DNA of 64,000 bases from an uncultured Bacillales bacterium (GCA_948433085.1 CAOJDP010000002.1:13579-77578), one strand, 5' to 3'. Shown: positions 2,776 through 47,615, numbered from the stretch's first letter. A program made the numbers and translations. The notes: generated by a model not told the origin, from the letters alone.

Positions 2776-4025
2776 ATGAAAAGAGCAATTGTTTTATCAG
2801 GTGGAGGCGCAAAAGGTGCTTATCAAATGGGTGTTTGGAAAGCAATAAAAAAATTAGGTATATCTTATGATATTGTAACAGGAACTTCTGTAGGAGCTTT
2901 GAATGCAGCTTTAATGGTCCAAAAAGATTTCCTTCGTGGCTTTGGTTGTGGTTTAATATGGATTTTAAATTGATTTTTGAGGATAAATTAGATATGAATT
3001 ATCACACTAAGGAAGGAAAAAATAAACTTTTTCATGTTTATGCACAAGCAGCATTGAATGGAGGTATGCAGGTTGAACGATTAGAACATACAGTAGAGAA
3101 AATACTTAATGTAAAGAAGATATATAAATCACCTATTGATTTAGGGATTGTTACTGTAAAATTTTCTAATTTAAAGCCTGTAATATTAACAAAAAAGGAA
3201 ATCCCTCCCACACAACTAAAAGATTATCTAATTGCTTCTGCATCTTGCTTTCCTGCTTTTCAGAAAAAGACAATTGCACATGAAAATTACATAGATGGTG
3301 GGTTATATGATAATCTTCCTATTAATTTAGCAATTACAATGGGTGCAACAGAAGTGATTGCAGTTGATTTAAAAGAAATAGGCATAAAAAAAAGAGTAAA
3401 AGACCAGACAATTCCTATTACTTATATTTCTCCAAATAATGATATAGGCTCTTTTTTAATCTTTGATAAAATGATGGCAAGATCTTGTATTCAATTTGGA
3501 TATAATGATACTATGAAAGCATTTCAACAATTAGATGGTAAAAAATTTACTTTTAAAAAGGGACATTTAGAAAAAAATTATGAACAATATTTTTCTAAAT
3601 ATATAGAGAATATGAAAAAAGTACTACATGTATCGAAACCTAATCCTATTTTAGATAGTATGTTTAAAATATCTGTACTGAATCATCTTTTGTTAAAAAC
3701 CGATTCTAAAATTGCAAAACAAAATTGGTACCAAGAAATTGAACGACTTGGTAAAGCATTCCACATGAACGAGACAAAAATCTACAATATTCAAAAATGG
3801 AATCAAGCTTTAATTACATATTATCAACAATTAGAACAAGATAAAACGTTAGAAGAGGACCTGAAAAAGAATAAATTTAAAAAATGGTTTCATAATGAAC
3901 AAATGATTTTTTATTTATGTGAATTAATGAAGAAAAAAAAGACTAAAAAATTGTACCAGAGTATATTATTATTTCCACATGAATTTTTAGAAGCGCTTTA
4001 TATAAAGACGATTATTGAGAAGTAG
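2776..4025 (+). pseudogene. patatin-like phospholipase split into two frames (frameshift or sequencing error near 2921-2945)
   Basis: ORF 2776-2973 carries GGGxKG and GTSVG (Ser nucleophile); overlapping ORF 2946-4025 in another frame carries the DGG catalytic Asp motif; A5 homopolymer at 2921-2925. Confidence 0.5.
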
Positions 4026-4035
4026 GTGAAAATTT

Positions 4036-5253
4036 ATGAAAAGAAAATTGCGAATCTTATTTATCGTTCTTTGCATGTTGTTCTTTATGTTGTATATACT
4101 TAGACCCAAAAATTACCAAACAAATTATACAATAACAACAAAAAATCAAAAATTTCATGTAAAAGAATCTTATCAAAAAGAACAATATTTATTAGAGGTT
4201 GATCATACTTTTTTTGTAACTGTCTCAAGTAAAAAAAAGAAACACAATCTTATAGAAGCAATTTATTATTATGAAAATGATCAATATCAATGTATGTATC
4301 TAGTTGGCAAAAATCTTCCTAATATCGATTTATTGTGCCATCATAAAGATACTTTATACCCGTATCAAGCAATAAAGGGAAATGATTCTGAAATTGATGC
4401 GTTTGTAAAATCATTAGAACAATATGGATATCATCAAGAGCAATTTGAAGATCAACAAAAAGTAGTAAAAACGTCCAATGGAATTACTATATATAATAAT
4501 TCAGTATCTAATCATATCATAGGGTTAGAAACTTATAAAGGAATTATAACCATAAATCAAAAAAATGTACTCAAAGAAAAGAACATATTTAAAAATGATC
4601 AATATCAGAAAGAAATAGAACAGTTTAATCAATCGTATTATGTAGTTGCGGATTATAATCAATCATATGAATTTCATGAGTTTTATGTAATTAATATTGA
4701 AACTGGAAAGGAGTCAAAAATAGTATCCAATCAAGCAATATCCTTAGATTCTTACATTCAAGGAATTGTGGATAATCAAATATATCTTTTTGATCGAAAT
4801 TATAAAAAACAATATAAAATTGATATAAAAAAGAGAAAGGTACAACAAGTTGGGGATACAGATTCTGGTGTTCAGGTCTATTTAAATGGTTGGAAAAACA
4901 TTACGATGTATCAAGCATTAAAGGAAGAAATATATTTTATTCAATCTCCATTAGAAGAGTCGATTCTCAAACAATATGATTATTGTGATTCCACAGAATT
5001 GTATACTTATTGTTATCAAAAAATAGACACACAATATCAAGTGTATCGTTATGATAATCAAATGCCAAAAGTACGTTATTATATTACATCAATTCCTGAT
5101 TGGAAACAGGTTGCATATATAGAAGATTACTTTTATTGGAAGGAAAATGATAAAATATACTATTATCAAGATAATATAGGAATAAGAGTCAAATTATCAA
5201 ACTCCGAATTTACATTCAATTCTAAACTGAAATTTGGTGTTTATGCCAAATAA
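4036..5253 (+). CDS. hypothetical membrane-anchored protein (N-terminal TM, Y/N/Q-rich ectodomain)
   Basis: N-terminal hydrophobic segment LRILFIVLCMLFFMLYIL. Confidence 0.4.
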   Translation: MKRKLRILFIVLCMLFFMLYILRPKNYQTNYTITTKNQKFHVKESYQKEQYLLEVDHTFFVTVSSKKKKHNLIEAIYYYENDQYQCMYLVGKNLPNIDLLCHHKDTLYPYQAIKGNDSEIDAFVKSLEQYGYHQEQFEDQQKVVKTSNGITIYNNSVSNHIIGLETYKGIITINQKNVLKEKNIFKNDQYQKEIEQFNQSYYVVADYNQSYEFHEFYVINIETGKESKIVSNQAISLDSYIQGIVDNQIYLFDRNYKKQYKIDIKKRKVQQVGDTDSGVQVYLNGWKNITMYQALKEEIYFIQSPLEESILKQYDYCDSTELYTYCYQKIDTQYQVYRYDNQMPKVRYYITSIPDWKQVAYIEDYFYWKENDKIYYYQDNIGIRVKLSNSEFTFNSKLKFGVYAK

Positions 5254-9620: not shown

Positions 9621-10751
9621 TTATAAATTATCTAGTAAATCAACAATTTCATTTTGAACACTAGGGAATAAGTGCATATAAACTTCTTGCATTACTCGTA
9701 AGCTGTGACCCATTCTTTGGGACATCATCAAGAAGAATTTTGTTGAATCCGTTTCCCCTGATTTTAAATATTCATTTATACATACGCTAACGTGTGAATG
9801 TCTAAACTCGTGTATGGTTATCATTTCCTTTTCCATATCAGCTAGTTTAAAATATATCTTTCTATGTTTTTGAACTTGATAATCGGATAGGACTTCACCA
9901 TTACCGAATACAAACCAATCTTCACTAAAGTCACCATATTGTTTAACAAACTCTTTATACTTTAGTAATTCTTCTCTTAACTTTTTAGACATTGTTATTT
10001 CTCTATTTAGACAATTCTTAGTAGCTGTTATTTTATATTTACCTGTCTTAGTGTTAAATGAGATAGTTTTGTTTACGCTAATCTTTTTAGTATCAAAGTT
10101 TATATCTTTCCAAGTAAGAGCTAACATTTCACCTTTTCTCATTCCTGTAAAGTATAATGTTAGAAAGAAACAATGCCATAGTTCATCTTTAATAACATTT
10201 ATAAACTTACAATATTGTTCATAAATAATATATCTTAATTTTTTACTTGTTTCAACAACTTCATCATTTCTCTTTTTGAAGCGTCCTGATAATTCAACAG
10301 GATTATAATTTAACTCATACTTTCTATTAGCAAAACTAAATATTTCTTTAAACACAACATAGTATTGATTACAAGAATCTACTGACAATCCTTTATCTAA
10401 AAGCTTATTTTTCCAATTCTCAATATCCATTACGGATATTTCATCTATAAATTTATTCTTAAAATATGGTTTTATATGATTCTCATAATTTGATTTATAT
10501 GTTAAGACAGTAGATTCTCTTAATCGTTTAAAAGCGTCTTCAAAATAGTCATCAGCTACAACATCAAACCTTTTTTTTACTGGAGCGTCACGATTAAGTA
10601 AAAATACTCTTTCTTCGGCTTTGGCTTCCTTTTCTAGTAAATACCTTTTAGAAGTGTAGGGTACTAATTTTCCCTCGGTATTATGATAGTAAACTTTGAA
10701 ACGCCATTGTCGACCATCTTTAGTCTTTTCTTTATCTTTAAATACGGACAT
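9621..10751 (-). CDS. int: phage tyrosine integrase (site-specific recombinase)
   Basis: C-terminal HEFRHSHVS ... MGHSLRVMQEVYMH (R-H-R-Y catalytic residues). Confidence 0.85.
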   Translation of the reverse strand: MSVFKDKEKTKDGRQWRFKVYYHNTEGKLVPYTSKRYLLEKEAKAEERVFLLNRDAPVKKRFDVVADDYFEDAFKRLRESTVLTYKSNYENHIKPYFKNKFIDEISVMDIENWKNKLLDKGLSVDSCNQYYVVFKEIFSFANRKYELNYNPVELSGRFKKRNDEVVETSKKLRYIIYEQYCKFINVIKDELWHCFFLTLYFTGMRKGEMLALTWKDINFDTKKISVNKTISFNTKTGKYKITATKNCLNREITMSKKLREELLKYKEFVKQYGDFSEDWFVFGNGEVLSDYQVQKHRKIYFKLADMEKEMITIHEFRHSHVSVCINEYLKSGETDSTKFFLMMSQRMGHSLRVMQEVYMHLFPSVQNEIVDLLDNL

Positions 10752-35411: not shown

Positions 35412-37829
35412 ATGAGTGGGATTAAAAAAATAACTGATGAAGTTAAATCCGCTGTAGCTAAGAGTGTTGAGCCTATGAAAAATCTAACCACTCAAGCAAA
35501 AGATATGGCTAGTAAAAGTGCTTCTAGTGTATCTCAAATGAAAGCTCAAATGAGAAGTTATAGTGGCTCTATTCAAGAAACAGCTAAGCAACAAGATTAT
35601 TTAAGAACTAAAATCGAGGACTTAAAAGATTTATTAGCTAAAGCTGATATGGGTTTTGAAGTTGGAGATACGATGAAGATTGAAGCTGATATTGAAAAAC
35701 TTGAAAATCGACTTAGAAAGTTGCAAAGTCAGGGTCAAAACACAGGTAAGGAAACTTCTGGTGCTTTTGATAAAATAAAAGCTAAAGTCAAATCAGCAGG
35801 AACACATCTAGCGGGGTTAGGTGGTAAGTTTAAAAATGTTTTAACTGGTAGTAAAAACTTGGGTAAGACATTTACATCTACCTTTAATAGTGGAATAAAA
35901 TCCATAAAAAGATTTGCTATGGGATTACTAAGCGTTAGAACAGCGGTTAGTATGGTTAGTAAAGCTATGCAATCATATTTAAGTTATGATACACAATTAT
36001 CCGATTCTATCCAAAATTGTTGGAATGTATTAGGAAGTCTATTAGCACCAGTATTAGAGTTTGTTGTTAGTTTATTCTCAAAGGCTGTAAGCTATGTAAA
36101 TGCTTTTGTACAGGCTCTTACAGGAATCAATCTTGTAGCTAGAGCTAATAAGAAAGCAATAGATAGTCAAGCTAAATCAACTAAAAAATTAAGTGAAGCT
36201 CAATCTAGTTTAGATGAGTTCCATACGGTCAATACCGATAATGGCTCAGGTAATGATAATAAACCTATCACGATTGAGCCTGTAGATATGGGAAAACTTG
36301 ATTTTCTTTTTGATTGGATTGAAAAAGCTAAACAATTACTTGCTACTTTATTTGACCCCATAAAACAAGCTTGGGAAAATAAAGGACAAGCTTTTATTGA
36401 TAGTCTAAAAAATGCTTTTGAGGGAATTAAGAATCTAGGAATAGCTGTATTTAGTTCTATATTAGAAGTATGGACTAATGGTACAGGTCAAACGATAGTT
36501 GAAAACATCTTACAAATGTGGACGAATGTGTTTAACATTGTTGGAGCACTAGCTCAGGCTTTTGCTAATGCGTGGACGAATGCTGGAAATGGTACAGCAA
36601 TCATACAAGCTATAGCGGATATATTTATAGCAATACAAGACATTGTTATTAGTATATCTAATTCATTATTGAATTGGGTGATGAGTGAGAATTTCCAAAA
36701 CGCATTAAATATAGTTTTTGGAATCCTAAGAGATTTATTTGGATATGCTCAAGAAATAGCTTCTTGGATAGCTACAATGTATGAAACTTATCTTGCTCCT
36801 GTAGTAGATAAGATATTAGATTGTATTTCAAGAATAATAATAGCTATTGGCTCAGTATGGGAGTTCTTAAAGCCTGTAATAGATACAATAATTGATGTAA
36901 TTATGAATGTACTAGAGCCTGTTATTGATGGACTATGTGGAATTATAGGCGGAATCATTGATGTTCTAAGTGGTGTTGCTGATTTTATCACAGGAGTATT
37001 TACCGGTGATTGGAGTAAAGCTTGGGACGGAATTAAATTGATATTTAGTGGAGTGATAGACGCTATAGTTTCATTGTTTAGAGGACTATACAATACAATA
37101 GTAGCTCTTTTACAGGGTGCTTGGGATATTATTAAGTCTATTTGGTCGGTAGTAAGTAGTTGGTTTAATAATGCGGTTATCAAGCCTTTAGGCAACTTAT
37201 TTAATGGTATATGGAATACTTTAAAGAACGGAGCTCAAAACACTTGGAATGGTATTAAAAATATCTTCTCATCAGTAGCGTCATTCTTTAAAAATATATT
37301 TACCAATGCTTGGAATGGTGTTAAAAATGTTTTCTCTACTGGAGGAAGAATATTCTCAGGTATAACTGAGGGTATAGTATCAGCGTTTAAAAAAGTAGTA
37401 AATACTATTATAGCTGGTATCAATAAAGTTGTTGCACTTCCATTTAAAGGAATCAATACAGCTTTAAAGAAAGTAAGAGATATATCATTTTTAGGAATAG
37501 AGCCATTTAAGGGATTGATTAAACTAATTGATATACCACAAATACCTAGCCTAGAAACTGGAGGCGTACTAGACCAAGAAACAATAGTAAGGGTAGCTGA
37601 ATATTCAAATGCTAAATCTAATCCGGAAATTGTATCTCCTAGAGATATGATGAAAGAAACAATGAAAGAGGCTATTGAAGAATCAGGAATGAACAATCAA
37701 TCTCAACAAGTAGATGTAAATATTACTGGAGAACTTACCGCAAAAGGTGATGATTTAGTATATGTATATGATAAGAACAAGAAAGACAAAGGTTATGATG
37801 GTGGAAAGAATCCATCGTTTGCCTACTAA
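35412..37829 (+). CDS. tail tape measure protein
   Basis: 805 aa, coiled-coil N-terminus, G/A/I-rich helical repeats, position. Confidence 0.8.
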   Translation: MSGIKKITDEVKSAVAKSVEPMKNLTTQAKDMASKSASSVSQMKAQMRSYSGSIQETAKQQDYLRTKIEDLKDLLAKADMGFEVGDTMKIEADIEKLENRLRKLQSQGQNTGKETSGAFDKIKAKVKSAGTHLAGLGGKFKNVLTGSKNLGKTFTSTFNSGIKSIKRFAMGLLSVRTAVSMVSKAMQSYLSYDTQLSDSIQNCWNVLGSLLAPVLEFVVSLFSKAVSYVNAFVQALTGINLVARANKKAIDSQAKSTKKLSEAQSSLDEFHTVNTDNGSGNDNKPITIEPVDMGKLDFLFDWIEKAKQLLATLFDPIKQAWENKGQAFIDSLKNAFEGIKNLGIAVFSSILEVWTNGTGQTIVENILQMWTNVFNIVGALAQAFANAWTNAGNGTAIIQAIADIFIAIQDIVISISNSLLNWVMSENFQNALNIVFGILRDLFGYAQEIASWIATMYETYLAPVVDKILDCISRIIIAIGSVWEFLKPVIDTIIDVIMNVLEPVIDGLCGIIGGIIDVLSGVADFITGVFTGDWSKAWDGIKLIFSGVIDAIVSLFRGLYNTIVALLQGAWDIIKSIWSVVSSWFNNAVIKPLGNLFNGIWNTLKNGAQNTWNGIKNIFSSVASFFKNIFTNAWNGVKNVFSTGGRIFSGITEGIVSAFKKVVNTIIAGINKVVALPFKGINTALKKVRDISFLGIEPFKGLIKLIDIPQIPSLETGGVLDQETIVRVAEYSNAKSNPEIVSPRDMMKETMKEAIEESGMNNQSQQVDVNITGELTAKGDDLVYVYDKNKKDKGYDGGKNPSFAY

Positions 37830-40052: not shown

Positions 40053-40656
40053 AACGCAAGCCGATGTTGACTTAATAAAATTAGACCCAACTAATGCTAA
40101 TAATAAAGGTGCTTATAATTATACTGACTTAAATAGAATTGAAAATAATTGTAAATATGTAATGAATCTACTAAATAATAGTGGATTATTTTATTATCCA
40201 ATAATAGTCGAAACAAAGACGGATTGGACGATGAAAGATATTCCTCATATTAAAGATATAAATAGAATAAGAAAAAATATTATTACTTTAATAAATGGGG
40301 TTAATTTAGGTGATGAATATAAAGAAATAGAATTTAGTAATACGATGGATTATATAAAAGCTAATATACTTGAAAAAGACTTAGAATTAGTTAAAAATTT
40401 GATGGCTTCGTGTAAAAGAGAAGTTCAAAAATGCAATATGTTTTTTTGTGGAACTAGAGGGCTATATGCTTTACCAAGTGAAAATGAAGTTTATAGTAAA
40501 TTTGGTGAGATGAAAAAATATGTTGGTACATTCTATAGTGGAACTAATGGTATTGGATTGTATTCTAAGCCTAATGAAAATGAAGAAATTGTTGGCTTCA
40601 TAAAAATCCAACAATATACAGGTTTGATATGTTGTGGAAAGGAGTTTAATTTATGA
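40027..40656 (+). CDS. tail-associated hypothetical protein
   Basis: AGGTG RBS; position. Confidence 0.35.
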   Translation: MWQKPIYDRTQADVDLIKLDPTNANNKGAYNYTDLNRIENNCKYVMNLLNNSGLFYYPIIVETKTDWTMKDIPHIKDINRIRKNIITLINGVNLGDEYKEIEFSNTMDYIKANILEKDLELVKNLMASCKREVQKCNMFFCGTRGLYALPSENEVYSKFGEMKKYVGTFYSGTNGIGLYSKPNENEEIVGFIKIQQYTGLICCGKEFNL

Positions 40657-42230
40657 AACAATATGTAAAAACGGATTGGAAAGATAGATTAGTTCAATTT
40701 CCTAATAGGTATAAAGACCAAAATAATAATGTTATAACCTTAACTCAAGACCCGGGAGAAGTAGCCCAAGATGGAACAATGGTTGAAGCTAAGGTGATGA
40801 ATAATATTGAAGAGGGAATTGAACATCTATTTGAAAATCGAAGTTTTGGTTATACTAAAACTTTACTTGTGGCTAACTGGACTAAAAACGCTAGTACAGG
40901 ATACTACGAATATGATATAATAGATGAGAACATTACAGCTCAAACTATTGTTGATGGAATGTTAGATATTGAAAATCAAGCTAAGCTAAATATTTCCTAT
41001 ACTGAATCTTACTTAGGAGGTTTTAAAGTAATTACTACTGAATTACCGAATGAAGAAATTAGTATAACATTCAAATATTCTTTATTGAATAGTGATGATA
41101 AAAATTTAGTTGCTCGAGGAACAATCAATGTGAGTTCTAAAGATACCGATAACTTAAATAAAGTTTATGGTATTAGGAGGTCACTAACAACTTCATCATC
41201 TTCTTGGGAAAGAATCAAAGACGCTGTAGGACTTGTAGCTCACGCTCAAGTAGGGACAACGCCTGTAAGAAATGATTTTGATGAAATATATCCGTGGAGT
41301 GATATTATCTCTTATAACTATGATACGACCGCTCGACAAGTCACAGCGTATTATGGTGACCCAACTTTTAAATTTGATGGTAGTAATGGTGATGTTTTGA
41401 CCAAGATACCTGAGTTTTATTGGAGGAGATATAGAGATAGTAATTATGAATATATTTTAATTTCAAAGAAAAAGTTAGCTGGATTTGTTAAGAGTGAAGA
41501 GTTCTCAGTAGGTCGTTATACTATGTCAGGCTCAAGTTCTAGGGTTTATAGTAGAAGTGGATATGCACCTCTTACTAATGTTAATATAACAAACTTTAGA
41601 AATTATGCTAGAGCTTTGGGAAGTGGATTCGGACAAATGGATTGGCATTATTTTATTTTACAAATGTTGTATCTAGTAGAATATGCTGATTATAATAGCC
41701 AATCTAAATTAGGTAAAGGCTATACTAATGGCTCTCACACAGCTCCTGTAAATAGTGGAGGTTGTGATAGACTTGGAATGAAGTCAGGAAGTGTTGATGG
41801 TACTGATAATACTTCTATGATTTATAGAGGTATAGAAGACATCTTCGGTAATGTATGGCAATTTATTGATGGAATAAATATTAGGAATAGTCAAACCTAT
41901 ATATGTTATGACGCTAATAAATATGCTGTAGATACTTTTAGTGGAAGTTATAAAGCTTTAGGTTATACTAATGCTCCAACTGAGGGATACGCTTCTAAGC
42001 TAGGTTATGATTCCGCTAATCCAATGGTAGCTATTACTACTGAGGCAACTGGAAGTACATCTACTAATATGTGTGATTATTTCTATAGGTCAGCTGATGG
42101 AGATAGAATAGCTCTTGTCGGCGGTGGATATGGCCATGGACTTAGTGCTGGCTTGTGGTTGTGGTCGGTTACTGTGGCTTCGTCTAGCTTGAACTCTTAT
42201 TGCGGTGCTCGACTTCTTAAAACCAGCTAA
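40653..42230 (+). CDS. tail fibre / receptor-binding protein with C-terminal FGE-sulfatase (C-type lectin-fold) domain; DGR target gene
   Basis: GIEDIFGNVWQFIDG resembles the FGE/DUF1566 GNVWEW motif; the C-terminal 35 aa LVGGGYGHGLSAGLWLWSVTVASSSLNSYCGARLL are encoded by the VR. Confidence 0.7.
   Translation: MKQYVKTDWKDRLVQFPNRYKDQNNNVITLTQDPGEVAQDGTMVEAKVMNNIEEGIEHLFENRSFGYTKTLLVANWTKNASTGYYEYDIIDENITAQTIVDGMLDIENQAKLNISYTESYLGGFKVITTELPNEEISITFKYSLLNSDDKNLVARGTINVSSKDTDNLNKVYGIRRSLTTSSSSWERIKDAVGLVAHAQVGTTPVRNDFDEIYPWSDIISYNYDTTARQVTAYYGDPTFKFDGSNGDVLTKIPEFYWRRYRDSNYEYILISKKKLAGFVKSEEFSVGRYTMSGSSSRVYSRSGYAPLTNVNITNFRNYARALGSGFGQMDWHYFILQMLYLVEYADYNSQSKLGKGYTNGSHTAPVNSGGCDRLGMKSGSVDGTDNTSMIYRGIEDIFGNVWQFIDGINIRNSQTYICYDANKYAVDTFSGSYKALGYTNAPTEGYASKLGYDSANPMVAITTEATGSTSTNMCDYFYRSADGDRIALVGGGYGHGLSAGLWLWSVTVASSSLNSYCGARLLKTS
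42110..42214 (+). repeat. DGR variable repeat (VR)
   Basis: Shares conserved blocks ctcttgtcggcggt / gctggcttgtggt / gcttcgtcta / ggtgctcgact with the downstream cassettes; differs from cassette 5 (segment 1) and cassette 4 (segments 2-3) only at their adenines. Confidence 0.8.
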
Positions 42231-42232
42231 AC

Positions 42233-42278
42233 GGGGGTTTGGGGGCGGTCAGCCTCCCATCAATCGACGAAGTCGATT
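42233..42278 (+). promoter_or_regulatory. VR-proximal G/C-rich element (gggggtttgggggcggtcagcctccc) plus hairpin aatcgac-gaa-gtcgatt; candidate IMH / target-recognition structure
   Basis: Only GC-rich tract in the region; perfect 7-bp stem with GAA loop at 42262-42278; absent after the TR-like cassettes. Confidence 0.5.
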
Positions 42279-42340
42279 ATAAAATAAAATTACCTTATAG
42301 GGAATGATGTGTAGTTGAGCACTTGACTAGCCGACAAGTT

Positions 42341-43081
42341 CTCTTGTCGGCGGTTATCACAATGAGCTTTTGAAAAGTGGACTCTTTTGTTTCTTTTTGT
42401 CCTCGCTTTCTTCGTACTCGGGTGGTTGCGGTGCTCGACTTCCTATATTGGGATTTGATGTGTTTTGTACTGATTTAGTGCGTATTTTGATGAGCTCTTG
42501 TCGGCGGTAATTATGCTAATACTTTGAAAGCTGGCTTGTGGTATTGGAATTTCAACGAGGCTTCGTCTAATGCGTGGACTAACATCGGTGCTCGACTACT
42601 TAATTTGTTCTTTGGGACTTGGTGTGTATGAGTGCCTTTAGCGTTGACTTTTCTTGTCGGCGGTCGTTGGATAGATGAGATGAAATGTGGTTTGTGGTGT
42701 TTTACTTTTGATGACGCTTCGTCTATTGCCAATGTTAGTCGAGGTGCTCGACTTATTATATGGGATTTGATGTGTCTAGGGCACTCTTCTAATTGGGTTA
42801 GAACTCTTGTCGGCGGTGCTTGGAACAATGATTCTAGGGCTGGCTTGTGGTTATGGTCGGTTAATGTGGCTTCGTCTAACTTGAACTCTAATTGCGGTGC
42901 TCGACTTATTATATTTAAGATACACATTAAGGGATTTGGTGTGTTTGGTACTGGTGTTTACCTTTACATATCCTTTAGCTCTTGTCGGCGGTAGATATGA
43001 CAATGGACTTAATGCTGGCTTGTGGTATTGGAATGTGAACAATGCTTCGTCTAACTCTAGTGTAAACATCGGTGCTCGACC
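42341..43081 (+). repeat. tandem array of five DGR template-repeat-like cassettes (R1 42341-42440, R2 42495-42597, R3 42651-42753, R4 42804-42906, R5 42979-43081)
   Basis: About 103-bp units about 155 bp apart; each encodes a variant of LVGG-x7-AGLW-x-W-x5-ASS-x6-GARL rich in AAY (Asn) codons; R1 is T-rich and frame-disrupted; spacers share gggatttgatgtgt. Confidence 0.75.
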
Positions 43082-43228
43082 ACTTATATTATTAAAATAC
43101 TTACACATCATCTTCCTCAGCCCTTGCTGAAAATTAGTCGTTATGGGTTGCTTTAGTAGGTTTATCTCCTGAAAGATGGAATTTCTCGAAAGAGTGGCAG
43201 GCAAATATAAGAATTTGGTGACAAACGA

Positions 43229-44299
43229 ATGAAAAGAAAAGGATTTATTTATGAAAAAATAGTTGAGTTAGACAATATTGAATCAGCAATTTATAAAGCT
43301 AGTATAGGAAAAGGTAAGAGAAAAAATGTTGAAAAGATATTAGATTCTCCTACTTATTACGCTATGCAAGTACAAAAAATGTTGAAAGAAAAAAATTATG
43401 TTCCTAGTCCTTATATAGAAATGAAGATAAGAGATGGAGCTAATAAAAAAGAAAGAATAATTTATAAACCTAGATTCTATCCCGACCAAGTCGTACACTG
43501 GGCTTTAATGCTACAAATAGAGCCAATACTTTATAAAGGTATGTATGAGCTATGCTGTGCGTCTATTAAAGGTAGAGGAATCCAAAGGGGAATGAAATAT
43601 TTAAAAAGAATATTAGTTCAAGATAGGAAATATACTAAATATTGTTTAAAGCTCGATGTTAAAAAGTTTTATCCTAGTGTTGATAAGGATATACTAAAGT
43701 CTAAATTTAGAAAGATTATTAAAGACCAAGATACACTTAATTTAATTGATATAATTATTGATAGTGGTAAAGAGGGATTGCCGATAGGTAATTATACCTC
43801 TCAATGGTTTGCCAATTTTTACTTGAAAGATTTAGACCATTATATTAAAGAAGTATTGAAAGTTAAATACTATATCCGCTATATGGACGATATGGTACTA
43901 TTTTCTAATAACAAGAAAGAATTGAGAAAGGTTAAATATGCTATTGATGAATTTTTAACTAAGGAAAAATTAGTTATAAAAGAAAATTGGCAATTATTTA
44001 AAACTGAATCAAGACCAATCGACTTTTTAGGATATAGATTTTATAGAGGATATACTACTTTAAGGAGAAGCAACTTTTTGCGTATTAAAAGAAGAGCAAA
44101 AAGAATCTCTAAAAAAGATGAATTAAATTTCAAAGACGCTTCCGCTATGCTTAGCTATAGTGGTTGGCTGAAACATTGTGATTCATTTAATTATCAACAA
44201 AAGTACATTAAACCATATATTGATTACAAAAAATGTAAGGAGGTTGTAAGAAATGAAAACAAAAAGTACAATAGCTCCCGAAAAATTCAAAATAGGTGA
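43229..44299 (+). CDS. DGR reverse transcriptase
   Basis: RT motifs including YIRYMDDMV (YMDD box) and the DGR-specific IGNYTSQWFANFYL; 356 aa; about 130 nt downstream of cassette R5. Confidence 0.85.
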   Translation: MKRKGFIYEKIVELDNIESAIYKASIGKGKRKNVEKILDSPTYYAMQVQKMLKEKNYVPSPYIEMKIRDGANKKERIIYKPRFYPDQVVHWALMLQIEPILYKGMYELCCASIKGRGIQRGMKYLKRILVQDRKYTKYCLKLDVKKFYPSVDKDILKSKFRKIIKDQDTLNLIDIIIDSGKEGLPIGNYTSQWFANFYLKDLDHYIKEVLKVKYYIRYMDDMVLFSNNKKELRKVKYAIDEFLTKEKLVIKENWQLFKTESRPIDFLGYRFYRGYTTLRRSNFLRIKRRAKRISKKDELNFKDASAMLSYSGWLKHCDSFNYQQKYIKPYIDYKKCKEVVRNENKKYNSSRKIQNR

Positions 44300-44744
44300 T
44301 AGAAAGGGCAACTTAATAGAGGTTGCTTTTTTTGATGATGTAAAGGAGATTCAAGAGGAAGAATCAACTCAGTATGAATATAGTGTTTATACTATCAAAA
44401 CCATCTATAGAGAAGATTTAGAGAGTTATATAAATGGTAATTATGAAGACTATTTAGCACTAGCTAAGGAAACTGATTATCAGTTAGAAGCTAGTAAAGT
44501 TAGAGAAAAAAGAAATGAGCTCTTGGCTGATAGTGATAAGTTTTTATTACTTGATAGACTAGGAATATCTTTACCTAGTGAAATTACAGCAACTACACTA
44601 TTATCTTCTATTAAAGATTTCTTTGATAATTTAAAAGAAGTATTAAATGGTGATTGGGCTGAATATAGGCAAAAGTTAAGAGATTTGACTAAACAAGAGG
44701 GATTTCCTTATAATGTTGAATTTCCTGAAAAGCCTGAGGAATAG
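44253..44744 (+). CDS. hypothetical acidic phage protein (not Avd-like)
   Basis: AGGAGG RBS; overlaps the RT 3' end by 47 nt. Confidence 0.4.
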   Translation: MKTKSTIAPEKFKIGDRKGNLIEVAFFDDVKEIQEEESTQYEYSVYTIKTIYREDLESYINGNYEDYLALAKETDYQLEASKVREKRNELLADSDKFLLLDRLGISLPSEITATTLLSSIKDFFDNLKEVLNGDWAEYRQKLRDLTKQEGFPYNVEFPEKPEE

Positions 44745-46227: not shown

Positions 46228-46260
46228 AGGCTAGCCTTAGTTGGTTAGCTTCTTTTTTTT
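46228..46260. terminator. terminator hairpin + T9 between convergent lysin and Cys-rich genes
   Basis: gaggctagcc..ggttagcttc stem followed by T9 (the T-run also encodes the KKK end of the minus-strand gene). Confidence 0.45.
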
Positions 46261-46709
46261 TGCTCTAATTTAAAAATATAGTCCTGACCGAAAGTTTTTA
46301 TAAATTCTTCTCTAGTATGCGTTTTTAAATATTCTTTCTCAAACATAACTTTATAAAATAGATTAAACATAATATCATTGTGGAATACATCGTGACACTT
46401 TTTACAAAACGGACATACCATACCAAGTCTAATAGATATTTGACGATATGCTCCCTCAAAAACTTCATTCTTTTCTATACCTGTTTTAGAGCCACAATTA
46501 CAGCATTTAGTTAAATCAGGATAGATTATACTAAATCTTTCTTTTTCTCTCTTAGATTGCTTGTTTGTGCGTGATTTGAGTGTCTTTTTTTCTTTGTATT
46601 CTATTTCATCACAACCTTTGCAAAATAGAGGTACTTCTTTTTTAAATTTTACACAATATCCATATTTGATTCCTTTTTTACTTCTTATCCTATGATTCTT
46701 ACATTTCAT
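46245..46709 (-). CDS. Cys-rich (putative zinc-binding) basic protein at the prophage right end
   Basis: CKGC, CCNCG, CPFCKKCH clusters; lies inside the candidate attR. Confidence 0.45.
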   Translation of the reverse strand: MKCKNHRIRSKKGIKYGYCVKFKKEVPLFCKGCDEIEYKEKKTLKSRTNKQSKREKERFSIIYPDLTKCCNCGSKTGIEKNEVFEGAYRQISIRLGMVCPFCKKCHDVFHNDIMFNLFYKVMFEKEYLKTHTREEFIKTFGQDYIFKLEQKKRS

Positions 46710-46734: not shown

Positions 46735-46877
46735 AATAGTGACTAAGAACTTGGAAATGTATTACTTTGTTGTACTTTATATAACATTAAACAGCTTGTA
46801 ATTACTACAAATGACATAGTATAGCTTTTAACCTACTTTTATGATATAATAATATCAAGTATATTATGGAGGTAGTT

Positions 46878-47615
46878 ATGGCAAAACAAAATATTGCAAT
46901 TCGTGTTGAAAATATGACCAAAGAATTCAAAGTGTTTTATGATAAACCAAGTACGTTAAAAGAACGATTAGTTTTTTGGAATAAAAAGAAAAGTGAGAGT
47001 AGAAAAGTATTAAATCGGATTGATTTAAATATAAAAAAAGGGGAAACAGTTGCTTTAATAGGAACAAATGGAAGTGGAAAAAGTACATTGCTTAAATTAA
47101 TGACCAAAATTATATACCCAACAAAAGGGAAAATTACAACCTATGGAAAACTAACTTCGTTGTTGGAATTAGGTGCGGGATTTCATCCTGATTTTACAGG
47201 AAGAGAAAATATTTATTTCAATGCTTCTATATTTGGATTAACCAAAAAAGAAATTGAAAAAAGAATGGATGAAATTATTCAGTTTTCGGAGTTGGAAGCA
47301 TTTATCGATAGTCCTGTGCGTACCTATTCTTCAGGAATGTATATGAGGCTTGCCTTTTCGGTTGCGATTAATGTAGATGCGGAGATCTTGTTGATTGATG
47401 AAATATTAGCAGTTGGAGATCAACATTTTCAGGATAAATGTTTTGCGAAGTTACAAGAATTAAAGAATCGTAATAAAACAATCGTGATTGTAAGTCATGC
47501 TTTAGATTCCATTAAAGTATTATGTGATAGAGCTGTGTGGATTTATAATGGGGAAGTAAAAATGGATGGAAAAGTAGAAGAAGTTGTGGAAGAATATATT
47601 AAAGTTTGTGGGTGA
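46878..47615 (+). CDS. ABC transporter ATP-binding protein, TagH/Wzt-like (glycopolymer export)
   Basis: Walker A GTNGSGKST, ABC signature, Walker B; GGAGGT RBS; followed by an ABC-2 permease. Confidence 0.8.
   Translation: MAKQNIAIRVENMTKEFKVFYDKPSTLKERLVFWNKKKSESRKVLNRIDLNIKKGETVALIGTNGSGKSTLLKLMTKIIYPTKGKITTYGKLTSLLELGAGFHPDFTGRENIYFNASIFGLTKKEIEKRMDEIIQFSELEAFIDSPVRTYSSGMYMRLAFSVAINVDAEILLIDEILAVGDQHFQDKCFAKLQELKNRNKTIVIVSHALDSIKVLCDRAVWIYNGEVKMDGKVEEVVEEYIKVCG

Follow-up and report, generated by a model that had tools for sequence, protein, structure and literature searches.

The tail-gene locus and its proteins

The question raised by this locus is which sequence serves as the template for the variable end of a prophage tail gene. 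We analysed one strand of a 64,000 nt stretch of DNA, here called the window, and all coordinates follow its numbering. The first-pass annotation had placed a diversity-generating retroelement (DGR) in a prophage tail region, which our results support, and had described the repeated 3' end of the target gene as one pair of variable repeat (VR) and template repeat (TR). The final ~100 nt of the target gene do recur downstream, but as five copies instead of one. Five template-like cassettes (C1–C5), repeated with a period of ~155 nt and each open in the reading frame of the VR, lie between the target and the reverse transcriptase (RT) gene, and this array is on the same strand as the RT gene (Table 1). 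A DGR RT, adenine-specific TR/VR differences, a C-type-lectin variable domain and variation restricted to the VR were all found at the locus, which is a DGR but not a simple VR/TR pair; mutagenic retrohoming is read here from its footprints. The canonical BPP-1-type layout has a single template repeat, and we consider it probable that in the present DGR this repeat was amplified to give a tandem row of alternative templates serving one VR.

Table 1. Coordinates of the features of the locus
Feature	Position	Strand	Basis or remark
Target gene, 525-aa phage tail protein	40653..42230	+	ORF, PHROG, AlphaFold, Foldseek
VR, last 34 codons ahead of the RLLKTS-stop tail	42112..42213	+	adenine-only mismatches to C5/C4 mosaic; differs from L245
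VR-specific downstream elements, presumed homing signal	42232..42277	+	sequence, DNA fold, covariation in relatives
Unit 1: leader GGGAATGATGTGT (42300-42312), cassette C1 (42341-42439)	42300..42439	+	C1 adenine-poor; fused to target gene in L248/L249
Unit 2: leader (42450-42463), cassette C2 (42495-42596)	42450..42596	+	C2 adenine-rich; source of L245 VR
Unit 3: leader (42614-42627), cassette C3 (42651-42752)	42614..42752	+	C3 adenine-poor
Unit 4: leader (42762-42775), cassette C4 (42804-42905)	42762..42905	+	template of VR positions 33-99
Unit 5: leader (42931-42944), cassette C5 (42979-43080)	42931..43080	+	template of VR positions 1-32
Trailer ACACATCATCTTCC, single copy, complementary to every leader	43103..43116	+	covariation, pairing energy
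Spacer RNA core, Rfam RT-18 (RF03021)	43118..43211	+	Rfam, covariation
DGR reverse transcriptase, 356 aa	43229..44299	+	PDB sequence match, Pfam, PHROG

The target ORF, including its GNVWQF motif, was found as annotated. It matches PHROG 5302 “tail protein” (E 4e-58) and represents a 90%-identity cluster of 312 members, which differ mainly within the last ~30 residues. The C-terminal domain had been described as FGE-sulfatase/C-type-lectin-like; the first part of this description failed, as a Pfam search relaxed to E<=10 still gave no FGE-sulfatase domain, while the second is favoured by structure prediction. The AlphaFold model (pLDDT 73, pTM 0.79, with low confidence in the VR stretch) has the DGR variable protein TaqVP (5vf4) as its top PDB match in Foldseek (E 3e-9, probability 1.00), followed by weak matches to Mtd, TvpA and a C-type lectin, and phmmer relates the target to 5vf4_A at E 3e-4. 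A DGR-type C-type-lectin fold is thus supported, at the level of a predicted model, for the C-terminal ~325 aa.

Downstream of the VR there is a block rich in G+C at 42232-42258 and a hairpin with a 6-bp stem, ATCGAC-GAA-GTCGAT (42263-42277), and these two elements occur after none of the cassettes. Covariation of the two hairpin arms is seen among relatives (ACCGAC../..GTCGGC and ACCGAC../..GTCGGT). As BPP-1 has IMH and a hairpin after its VR, we presume by analogy that block and hairpin represent a putative homing signal.

The RT and its motifs YIRYMDDMV and IGNYTSQWF were likewise confirmed. Among PDB sequences it is closest to 8ub7_A (residues 5-321; E 3.7e-34), and the second match is a group II RT (E 6e-11). 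In the alignment with 8ub7_A, IGNYTSQ stands opposite IGSLTSQ and YMDD opposite YMDD, so that catalytic and IGxxxSQ residues line up. We take 8ub7 to be the BPP-1 enzyme, as its length (328 aa) and D215/D216 numbering match the preprint; by this sequence match the RT is nearest to the Bordetella-phage DGR enzyme. It also matches Pfam RVT_1 and PHROG 1423 (E 2e-109). The earlier assignment to DGR rather than group II or retron RTs held in a profile search, where the thresholds of the latter two were not reached. Scores were 80 bits for group II (cut-off 300), 68 bits for retron St85 (cut-off 235) and 72 bits for Drt3a (cut-off 200), and as to a group II intron or retron RNA, Rfam reports RT-18 alone beside the RT gene.

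No gene for the accessory protein Avd was found: the interval from target to RT has no ORF other than frames running through the cassettes, no Avd-like Pfam family occurs among the neighbouring genes, and ten small prophage ORFs that were scanned gave 0 matches. Avd is present in about 74% of DGRs and hence does not define them (PMC5758913). Without such a gene, the ribonucleoprotein must differ from the solved one.

Sources of the variable repeat

Each unit of the array consists of a leader of 14 nt, a linker of ~26 nt, a cassette of ~100 nt and a short CTTATATT-like flank. C1 is adenine-poor and shorter by one codon, C3 is also adenine-poor, and C2, which has 6 AAY codons, is rich in adenine. 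Tandem Repeats Finder did not report the cassette array because the copies are just 61-84% identical.

No single cassette differs from the window VR at adenines alone. The best one, C4, is mismatched over 99 nt at 8 adenines and at 8 sites with another base. A mosaic of C5 (VR 1-32) and C4 (VR 33-99), joined inside a shared block of 13 nt, leaves 8 mismatches, which fall on 8 of the 19 A sites and on none of the 80 other sites; the probability that all 8 would land on the 19 A sites is 4e-7. The adenine specificity claimed by the first-pass annotation therefore stands for the mosaic (8/8 at A), though for no individual copy. Seven codon changes had been listed as starting from AAY, and five do so; the starting codon is GAC for GGC and AGA for GGA, and there is an eighth, silent change (TTA to TTG).

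The predicted variability of the VR is seen in copies that are otherwise identical. The window and contig L245 show 37 differences in 6,578 nt, every one within the VR, and the L245 VR is templated by C2 (12 adenine mismatches and 1 other). Similarly, L011 and L012 have 38 differences in 2,668 nt, again all within the VR, their VRs being derived from cassettes 6 and 7. In L090 and L091 the seven cassette translations are the same and the VRs are different, and L246 carries the array of the window together with a VR that fits no present cassette. As judged from these contigs, arrays are shown to stay unchanged while the VR changes.

We extended the comparison to the family, with 39 non-redundant arrays, the relatives being mostly short-read metagenome assemblies, and called a VR clean when it had <=1 non-A mismatch. 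This applied to 29 of the 39, of which 23 derive from one cassette of any rank and 6 are mosaics, always joined within the conserved GCTGGCTTGTGGT block; the other 10 VRs, that of L246 among them, match no present cassette. With all cassettes considered, the adenine enrichment holds for the pooled set as it does for the window mosaic, with 187 of 571 A sites changed vs 8 of 2309 other sites. In a pseudo-VR control, where cassettes were treated as VRs, 1 of 183 was clean and the median was 18 non-A mismatches. Since VRs copy different cassettes and their changes are almost confined to adenines of the template, reverse transcription and homing into the VR must have involved more than one cassette; the mismatch patterns show use of more than one cassette as template in this phage and its relatives.

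An array beside a single expressed gene is also found in the Neisseria pilE/pilS and Borrelia vlsE systems, where the expressed locus is accompanied by untranslated in-frame partial copies with conserved ends; mosaic expressed copies and recombination among cassettes are common to these systems and the window. In a silent-cassette gene conversion of this type, homologous recombination would move the cassettes and the RT would mutagenise from the last cassette only or be irrelevant to the choice. Recombination among the repeats is indeed clear, as L241 and L243 have hybrid cassettes originating from it, and L248/L249 carry a fusion of the target gene with C1, a product of deletion between the VR and C1. 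Three VRs are identical to a cassette, in one case (L162) with 0 of 22 adenines changed, so that faithful transfer also occurs, possibly of a RecA type, and could explain part of the cassette use. However, VRs from internal cassettes differ from these nearly only at adenines (besides L245, those of L003, L089 and L107, each with 11-12 A and 0 other mismatches), and adenine-only differences from an internal cassette, within an unchanged array, require reverse transcription of that very cassette. Most transfers bear this adenine signature of the RT which, like the RNA elements that each cassette possesses for a proposed docking on an RT-bound spacer RNA, separates the window from pilE/pilS and vlsE. 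We regard gene conversion as an improbable explanation, and the system appears to be one of retro-homing, not of DNA gene conversion alone.

It is highly unlikely that the locus is an ordinary one-template DGR in which the RT-proximal C5 is the sole working TR and C1–C4 are decaying duplicates without a role. C5 does occupy the usual place of a TR, directly before spacer RNA and RT, C1 and C3 are the adenine-poor cassettes mentioned above, and more distant relatives have exactly one TR, where relatives with an RT >=76% identical have 1-10 cassettes. But C5 alone gives 13 non-A mismatches to the window VR, two thirds of which fit C4, and L245, the same outside the VR, derives from C2. Moreover, of the 23 clean VRs that derive from one cassette, 17 have a source other than the RT-proximal one, both proposed docking elements are kept by internal units, and none of 207 cassettes has an in-frame stop in the VR frame, with stops in 79 and 201 in the other two frames.

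That array or mosaic VR represents an assembly artefact of a VR-heterogeneous population is extremely improbable: the relatives are mostly short-read assemblies, an identical stretch of 21 nt is common to C2 and C5, and the hybrid cassettes of contigs with low coverage (L241 11x, L242 5x) could be chimeras, but the five-cassette array with its unique spacers was recovered from independent samples by different assemblers (window, L245, L246, L248), arrays are present in >35 independent contigs, and the 13-nt block at the C5/C4 junction is too short to mislead an assembler.

RNA elements and a proposed docking mechanism

A single spacer RNA, composed of the trailer, the RT-18 core and a 3' tail, follows the last unit and adjoins the RT gene. 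The core matches the full Rfam model (1-84) with 55.4 bits, above the gathering score of 41.3, and comprises a hairpin (43118-43129) that is followed by AAAAU and covaries in relatives, the A-run, a long stem, and the 3' tail AAATATAAG (43203-43211). RT-18 is a motif known upstream of reverse-transcriptase genes. Its model describes the local core alone and draws the 3' tail unpaired, so that the long-range partners (leaders and flanks) and the repeated units are outside it.

The leader:trailer helix of 12 bp is 99.6% paired in 99 distinct sequences, with compensatory changes at 6 pairs, for an alignment in which complementarity to the trailer had in part served to find the leaders, 8 loci that have a trailer and no leader were excluded, and the scope of covariation is limited by one trailer sequence common to all arrays. 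Slid controls are 35-57% paired. The pairing energy is -15.2 kcal/mol for internal units and -14.6 kcal/mol for last units, vs -7.4 kcal/mol for the VR control, and in the spacers between units conservation is confined to those leader positions that pair (91-100% vs ~50% around them). By analogy, we regard the trailer as the counterpart of the Sp strand in the “cPRT stop” duplex of BPP-1. The tail can pair with the flank behind each cassette, with a mean energy of -6.0 kcal/mol for cognate vs -4.5 kcal/mol for non-cognate combinations, and the observed mean was reached in 0 of 5000 permutations. Examples of tail:flank covariation were also seen by eye. Leader and flank are maintained in internal units as well as in the last unit.

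We favour a process where cassettes are selected by alternative RNA pairing. Array and RT gene are assumed to be transcribed together. The leader of the chosen cassette would pair with the trailer, like the upstream:Sp “stop” duplex of BPP-1, and its flank with the spacer tail, like the BPP-1 template:primer duplex; units downstream would loop out, and the RT would copy the docked cassette with adenine infidelity. As every cassette keeps both segments that covary with the spacer RNA, we infer that any of them can dock on this single RNA as template. Mosaic VRs may result from a short cDNA replacing the 3' part of the VR, from template switching, or from hybrid cassettes. Plain DNA recombination also reshuffles the array, giving hybrid cassettes and the VR-C1 fusion, and mutagenised copies sometimes turn into resident cassettes. 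Such a system would diversify the receptor-binding tip at two levels, by choice of a scaffold among the cassettes and then by adenine mutagenesis within it. In this arrangement, the flank of an internal cassette is hundreds of nucleotides from the trailer.

Relation to known retroelements and the array as a possible archive

The prototype BPP-1 DGR (mtd-avd-TR-brt) has an RT of the same clade as that of the window. In both, the VR forms the 3' end of the gene for a receptor-binding tail protein that has a (here predicted) C-type-lectin fold, TR-to-VR differences are adenine-specific, and a GC-rich element with a hairpin is located behind the VR only. The BPP-1 preprint describes an upstream:spacer duplex, an adjacent stem-loop with adenosines, and a duplex between the 3' end of the template and the spacer; the proposed pairings at our locus follow the same scheme, an upstream:spacer duplex being followed by stem-loop and A-run and accompanied by a template-3'-end:spacer duplex. 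In contrast to BPP-1, the window has five tandem templates, at least three of which are used, no Avd gene was found, and the short linker between template and trailer is without an Avd-binding stem-loop. A further difference is the location of the flank-pairing strand at the spacer's 3' end, by which the two duplexes would cross (a pseudoknot), whereas they are nested in BPP-1.

Loci with more than one TR-like repeat near one RT have been reported, in surveys (Yan et al. 2019, PMC6642488; Carrasco et al. 2024, PMC11661182) under the label “two or more TRs” and in the Zeta crAss-like phage Lera as TR1-TR3 (PMC12386605). In those reports, each TR has its own VR, or extra pairs were deemed decayed, or the loci were removed, and none of them mentions several tandem templates for a single VR, a switch between cassettes, mosaic VRs or RNA elements repeated with each unit. 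We found no published description of tandem arrays serving one VR; surveys only count or discard multi-TR loci. As far as our literature search reached, a tandem template array with switching between templates is an undescribed variant.

It is conceivable, if rather doubtful, that the array is also a writable archive, where selected mutagenised VRs are copied back by retro-homing or gene conversion and kept as adenine-poor cassettes. If so, these could later be redeployed nearly unchanged, and a heritable memory of past receptor specificities would exist beside the hypermutation engine. Three observations agree with such an archive: at least three cassettes within arrays derive from other cassettes by changes at adenines only, the VR-proximal cassette is almost always adenine-poor, and adenine-poor cassettes template VRs with few or no changes (L083, L175, L179, L211).

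An array of template cassettes for one variable repeat

The last ~100 nt of the target gene, the variable repeat (VR) of a diversity-generating retroelement (DGR), had been described in the first-pass annotation as a repeat copied downstream; the sequence does recur there, in five copies and not in one. No additional copies were found elsewhere in the window. The five template-like cassettes (C1–C5) have start-to-start distances of 153–175 nt, and all copies have CTCTTGTCGGCGG and GGTGCTCGAC at their ends and, in the centre, a block resembling GCTGGCTTGTGGT. Tandem Repeats Finder reported nothing between 41500 and 43500 because the copies are too divergent, and a repeat search with motif anchors was used instead.

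Features of the DGR and its prophage, with mismatches of the VR to single cassettes
Feature	Position	Strand	Remarks
Integrase	9621-10751	-	Prophage module
Tape measure	35412-37829		Prophage module
Target gene	40653-42230	+	525 aa; GNVWQF; PHROG 5302 'tail protein'
VR	42112-42213		3' end of target gene
C1	42341-42439
C2	42495-42596		VR against C2 alone: 15 adenine, 20 non-adenine mismatches
C3	42651-42752		VR against C3 alone: 11 adenine, 29 non-adenine
C4	42804-42905		VR against C4 alone: 8 adenine, 8 non-adenine
C5	42979-43080		VR against C5 alone: 14 adenine, 13 non-adenine
Trailer	43103-43116
RT-18 core	43118-43211
Reverse transcriptase (RT)	43229-44299	+	356 aa; YIRYMDDMV, IGNYTSQWF
Tail-fibre assembly gene	44253-44744		Prophage module
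Holin and CHAP/CW_7 lysin			Prophage lysis module

The comparison extended over 99 nt and did not include C1, which is one codon shorter (62 mismatches when aligned ungapped over 108 nt). When C5 (positions 1–32) is followed by C4 (33–99), with a single switch in the central conserved block, the VR differs at 8 of 19 adenine sites and at none of the 80 others; the probability of all 8 mismatches falling at the 19 adenine sites by chance is 4e-7. By this alignment the VR of the window requires two templates, C5 and then C4. The adenine specificity claimed earlier for a VR/TR pair (TR, template repeat) is thus retained, with 8 of 8 mismatches of the mosaic at adenines, and the simple pair is not, as no single cassette suffices. 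A pseudo-VR control, in which 183 array cassettes of the family were compared with their neighbours, gave 1 clean fit (at most one non-adenine mismatch) and a median of 18 non-adenine mismatches, which argues that clean fits are not produced by the method.

The target protein represents a 90% cluster of 312 members, among which proteins 99.8–100% identical outside the tip have very different tips. No contig was recorded on look-up for the window's exact target protein; cluster members were used in its place, and DNA was retrieved for several of them. One such contig (L245) differs from the window at 37 positions in 6,578 nt, every one of them within the VR, so that C1–C5 are all present unchanged. 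C2 is the source of its VR (12 adenine mismatches and 1 other), and one array has thus given a VR from C2 in one copy and from C5 plus C4 in the other. Likewise, two contigs from different samples (L011 and L012) are identical over 2,668 nt save within the VR, the sources being cassette 6 and cassette 7, respectively. The adenine-templated variability that had been proposed for the VR is borne out by these otherwise identical contigs. At the level of sequence comparison, the data demonstrate that several cassettes of one unchanged array are sources of VR sequence and that the transfers are marked at adenines in the manner of a DGR RT. In a further contig with the same array (L246), where no more than 4 positions outside the VR are unlike the window, the VR (RFGNTSPAGLWGWYVDIASSLLSATV, 3963–4061) fits none of C1–C5 (14 adenine and 18 other mismatches).

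For a family-wide comparison, RT relatives were gathered from species-representative genomes, IMG/VR and metagenomes (80 loci each); short-read assemblies make up nearly all of the comparative data. Arrays are limited to a subclade with an RT at least ~76% identical to that of the window, carried by gut MAGs labelled Bacilli, Tenericutes, Mollicutes or Clostridia and also by viral contigs; relatives beyond it possess one TR, from which the VR differs cleanly, at adenines alone. Of the 48 non-redundant loci in which a single contig covers both VR and RT, 9 have one cassette, 17 have 2–4, 21 have 5–8 and one has 10. In 29 of the 39 loci having at least two cassettes, the VR has a source that leaves no more than one non-adenine mismatch: 23 times a single cassette (rank 0 to 6 from the RT end) and 6 times a two-cassette mosaic joined in the central block. 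The other 10 VRs, including that of L246, fit no present cassette. Pooled over the 29 explained VRs, 187 of 571 template adenines are changed, as are 8 of 2309 other sites. In-frame stops are absent from all 207 cassettes in the VR frame and occur in 79 and 201 cassettes in the other two frames; the untranslated cassettes are maintained open as coding templates.

Sequence also moves in other ways. In three loci the VR equals one of the cassettes exactly (cassette 6 in L162, 3 in L175, 4 in L211), with 0 of 22 adenines changed in L162, which implies a faithful transfer route as well, either gene conversion or non-mutagenic copying. Conversely, adenine-only derived cassettes indicate that mutagenised sequence enters the array itself: in L001, where the cassettes concerned lie at −733 and −423 relative to the start of the RT, cassette 3 departs from cassette 1 at adenines and at no other sites, and cassette 3 of both L105 and L195 is an adenine-only derivative of a cassette found in L009 and L098 (10, 8 and 9 adenine changes in L001, L105 and L195, with 0–1 others). 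With rare exceptions, the VR-proximal cassette is poor in adenine (1.35 AAY codons vs 3.3–4.7), and it nonetheless serves as template in L083, L105 and L188.

Two contigs (L241 and L243) have a hybrid cassette (5' C2, 3' C5) from which the VRs of both derive. In L248 (2501–4129) and L249 (894–2522), which belong to the same phage as the window, at the equivalent of window 42112–42439, the target is fused in frame to C1, resulting in one 542-aa protein, present in 7 contigs, that runs on into the spacer; 229 nt including the stop codon, a GC block and a hairpin are lost. This looks like the product of a crossover between VR and C1 and should block further homing. Hybrid cassettes and fusion together argue for frequent DNA recombination between the repeats. 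Since 21 identical bases are common to C2 and C5, a chimeric assembly could explain some of the hybrids seen at low coverage.

RNA elements and the choice of template

In the prototype DGR of Bordetella phage BPP-1, the template needs two flanking duplexes with a downstream spacer RNA, one between the TR 3' end and the priming strand, the other (the 'cPRT stop') involving a segment upstream of TR and followed by a stem-loop and adenosines, and many DGRs are predicted to have both kinds of element (preprint 10.1101/2023.10.23.563531). The present locus resembles BPP-1 in its predicted leader:trailer and flank:tail pairings and in the hairpin and A-run that follow the trailer.

A leader, GGGAYYTGRTGTGT, precedes every template, single or arrayed, at a median of 26 nt ahead of the cassette, and the trailer, ACACATCATYTTCC, comes after the last template. 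Their predicted 12-bp helix is 99.6% paired over 99 distinct aligned sequences (35–57% in slid controls); the leaders were placed in part through their complementarity to the trailer, and the alignment excludes 8 apparently degenerate loci that have a trailer and no leader. Two-sided changes occur at six of the pairs, for example TGATATGT/ACATATCA, TGGTATGT/ACATACCA and TGATGTGC/GCACATCA. Directly 3' of the trailer there is a covarying hairpin, then AAAAU. The core is a full-length match, above threshold, to Rfam RT-18, a motif reportedly known solely as 'upstream of RT genes'. Its 3' tail, AAATATAAG (43203–43211), is unpaired in the Rfam model, and the CTTATATT-like sequence flanking the template on its 3' side is complementary to it; the complementarity is kept in relatives with other sequences (TTTTATATC/GATATAAAA, TCCCTTATA/TATAAGGGA, TCTTATCA/TGATAAGA, CTTGTTC/GAACAAG). 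Duplex energies for flank and tail are −6.0 kcal/mol for cognate and −4.5 for non-cognate combinations, and the observed mean was reached in 0 of 5000 permutations, a shuffle statistic that is not a probability, as the sequences share phylogeny.

Arrays have one trailer and one tail, on a single spacer RNA, and a leader and a flank in each unit. Pairing with the trailer is worth −15.2 kcal/mol for the leaders of 170 internal units and −14.6 for those of last units, and −7.4 when the region upstream of the VR takes the place of a leader; the flank:tail values are −4.8 (internal), −4.5 (last) and −3.8 kcal/mol (VR region), with about −2.5 after shuffling. In 151 distinct inter-unit spacers, conservation is confined to the leader pairing positions (91–100%), while two internal-loop positions, an A/G position opposite U and the surroundings are variable (~50%). 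Folded alone, the spacer has no stability above shuffles (z = +1.5); the predicted structure is backed by covariation, not by energy.

As to how a cassette is selected, we tentatively favour, with slightly less than even confidence, alternative docking on the single spacer RNA: the leader and flank of one unit would pair with it, and the units downstream of the chosen cassette would loop out. Priming would then be expected at or beside the tail AAATATAAG, with synthesis ending just 3' of the leader. The model has weak points, namely that its two helices cross, whereas those of BPP-1 do not, that internal cassettes need a long loop, and that no Avd candidate turned up in the interval from target to RT, in adjacent genes or in the ten small prophage ORFs scanned. 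Mosaic VRs may originate by any of three routes: short cDNAs would replace the 3' part of the VR alone, which agrees with a fixed 3' cDNA start; the template would be switched in the conserved block; or hybrid cassettes would be copied and lost afterwards. In 6 of 6 mosaics with the array in view, the 5' part is from the more RT-proximal cassette. This polarity is not put forward as a strict rule, as L244 would be an exception if its array equals that of the window. A read-through cDNA over two cassettes with colinear integration is rejected, as it predicts a distal 5' and a proximal 3' part, the opposite of what the six mosaics have. A promoter ahead of every unit has no support, a sigma-70 scan having given 2 sites with 2.3 expected.

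Two side observations concern these elements. Eight loci (L010, L038, L085, L108, L122, L183, L193 and L212) retain the trailer and RT-18 core, but neither a leader nor a template can be recognised where it would be expected; these elements have probably degenerated or suffered deletions, and L038 has a leader-like sequence 23 nt away from the trailer. Within 42205–42277, the 3' end of the VR, TCGACTTC, is complementary to GAAGTCGA of the downstream hairpin, which could thus pair alternatively with the VR end.

Consequences of multiple templates

DGRs are commonly viewed as having a single invariant template, so that all non-adenine positions of the VR are fixed. A template array lifts that limit: cassette cores within an array have a mean identity of 54%, so that a cassette switch alters the scaffold, beyond the asparagine positions. 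The whole scaffold of the receptor-binding loop would be changeable and then hypermutated, with a larger sequence space. How one RT-bound spacer RNA picks among several upstream templates is a testable RNA question, for which each unit, with its covarying leader and flank, has precise mutation targets, and the natural multi-template design is a usable blueprint for DGR-based directed evolution.

Yan 2019 (PMC6642488) counts loci with at least two TRs, Carrasco 2024 (PMC11661182) counts such loci and excludes them from the architecture analysis, and the account of a crAss-like phage (PMC12386605) describes TR1–3, each with its own VR. Within what is accessible of the open full-text DGR literature there is no account of a tandem template array for one VR, of switching between cassettes or of RNA elements repeated in each unit. 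DGR-finding pipelines take a single TR per VR for granted, and loci with several TRs are flagged or dropped, so that arrays are probably under-counted in gut viromes.

The prophage locus and its proteins

Both ORFs of the first-pass annotation, target and RT, were recovered with the sizes, positions and sequence motifs it gave, and the prophage tail locus it named is evident from the integrase, tape measure, tail proteins, tail-fibre assembly gene, holin and lysin around the DGR. The last 47 nt of the RT ORF (44253–44299) are also the first of the tail-fibre assembly gene; the RT is placed within the tail-fibre operon, not in a separate cassette. The GenBank phage collection holds no close relatives, only short RT matches of 67–77% identity. 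At the right prophage end, a cysteine-rich 154-aa ORF without a Pfam family (46245–46709, minus strand) is flanked by the lysin and an ABC-transporter-like gene (46866–47615).

The top solved relative of the RT is 8ub7_A (328 aa; E 3.7e-34, residues 5–321 aligned), with IGNYTSQWFANFY against IGSLTSQLFANVY and YMDD against YMDD; a group II intron RT ranks second among solved matches (E 6e-11). We read 8ub7 as the Bordetella phage bRT, judging from the numbering D215/D216, I181/G182 and Q187 as in the cryo-EM preprint. The RT matches PHROG 1423 'reverse transcriptase' (E 2e-109) and passes no NCBIfam model, group II maturase, retron St85 and Drt3a/Drt5 all being far under their cut-offs. Its assignment to the DGR type, not to retrons or group II introns, is upheld.

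For the target, an 'FGE-sulfatase' and 'C-type-lectin-like' C-terminal domain had been suggested. The former has no profile support: no FGE-sulfatase or other Pfam family matches the C-terminal half even at E<=10. The latter is supported by an AlphaFold model (from 29 homologues; pLDDT 73, pTM 0.79, VR loop low-confidence) that matches TaqVP, a Thermus DGR variable protein, at E 3e-9, and more weakly Mtd, TvpA and a snake C-type lectin. By phmmer, the target gives a weak match to 5vf4_A (E 3e-4). Homologues of the region encoded by 41253–42227 (P0029, P0034, P0037 and others) have the same C-terminal variable domain in other organisms, there joined to an N-terminal prepilin-type methylation domain (PF07963) or phage tail-fibre repeat (PF12571); the fusion to PF07963 suggests that the domain is displayed on pilin-like proteins too.
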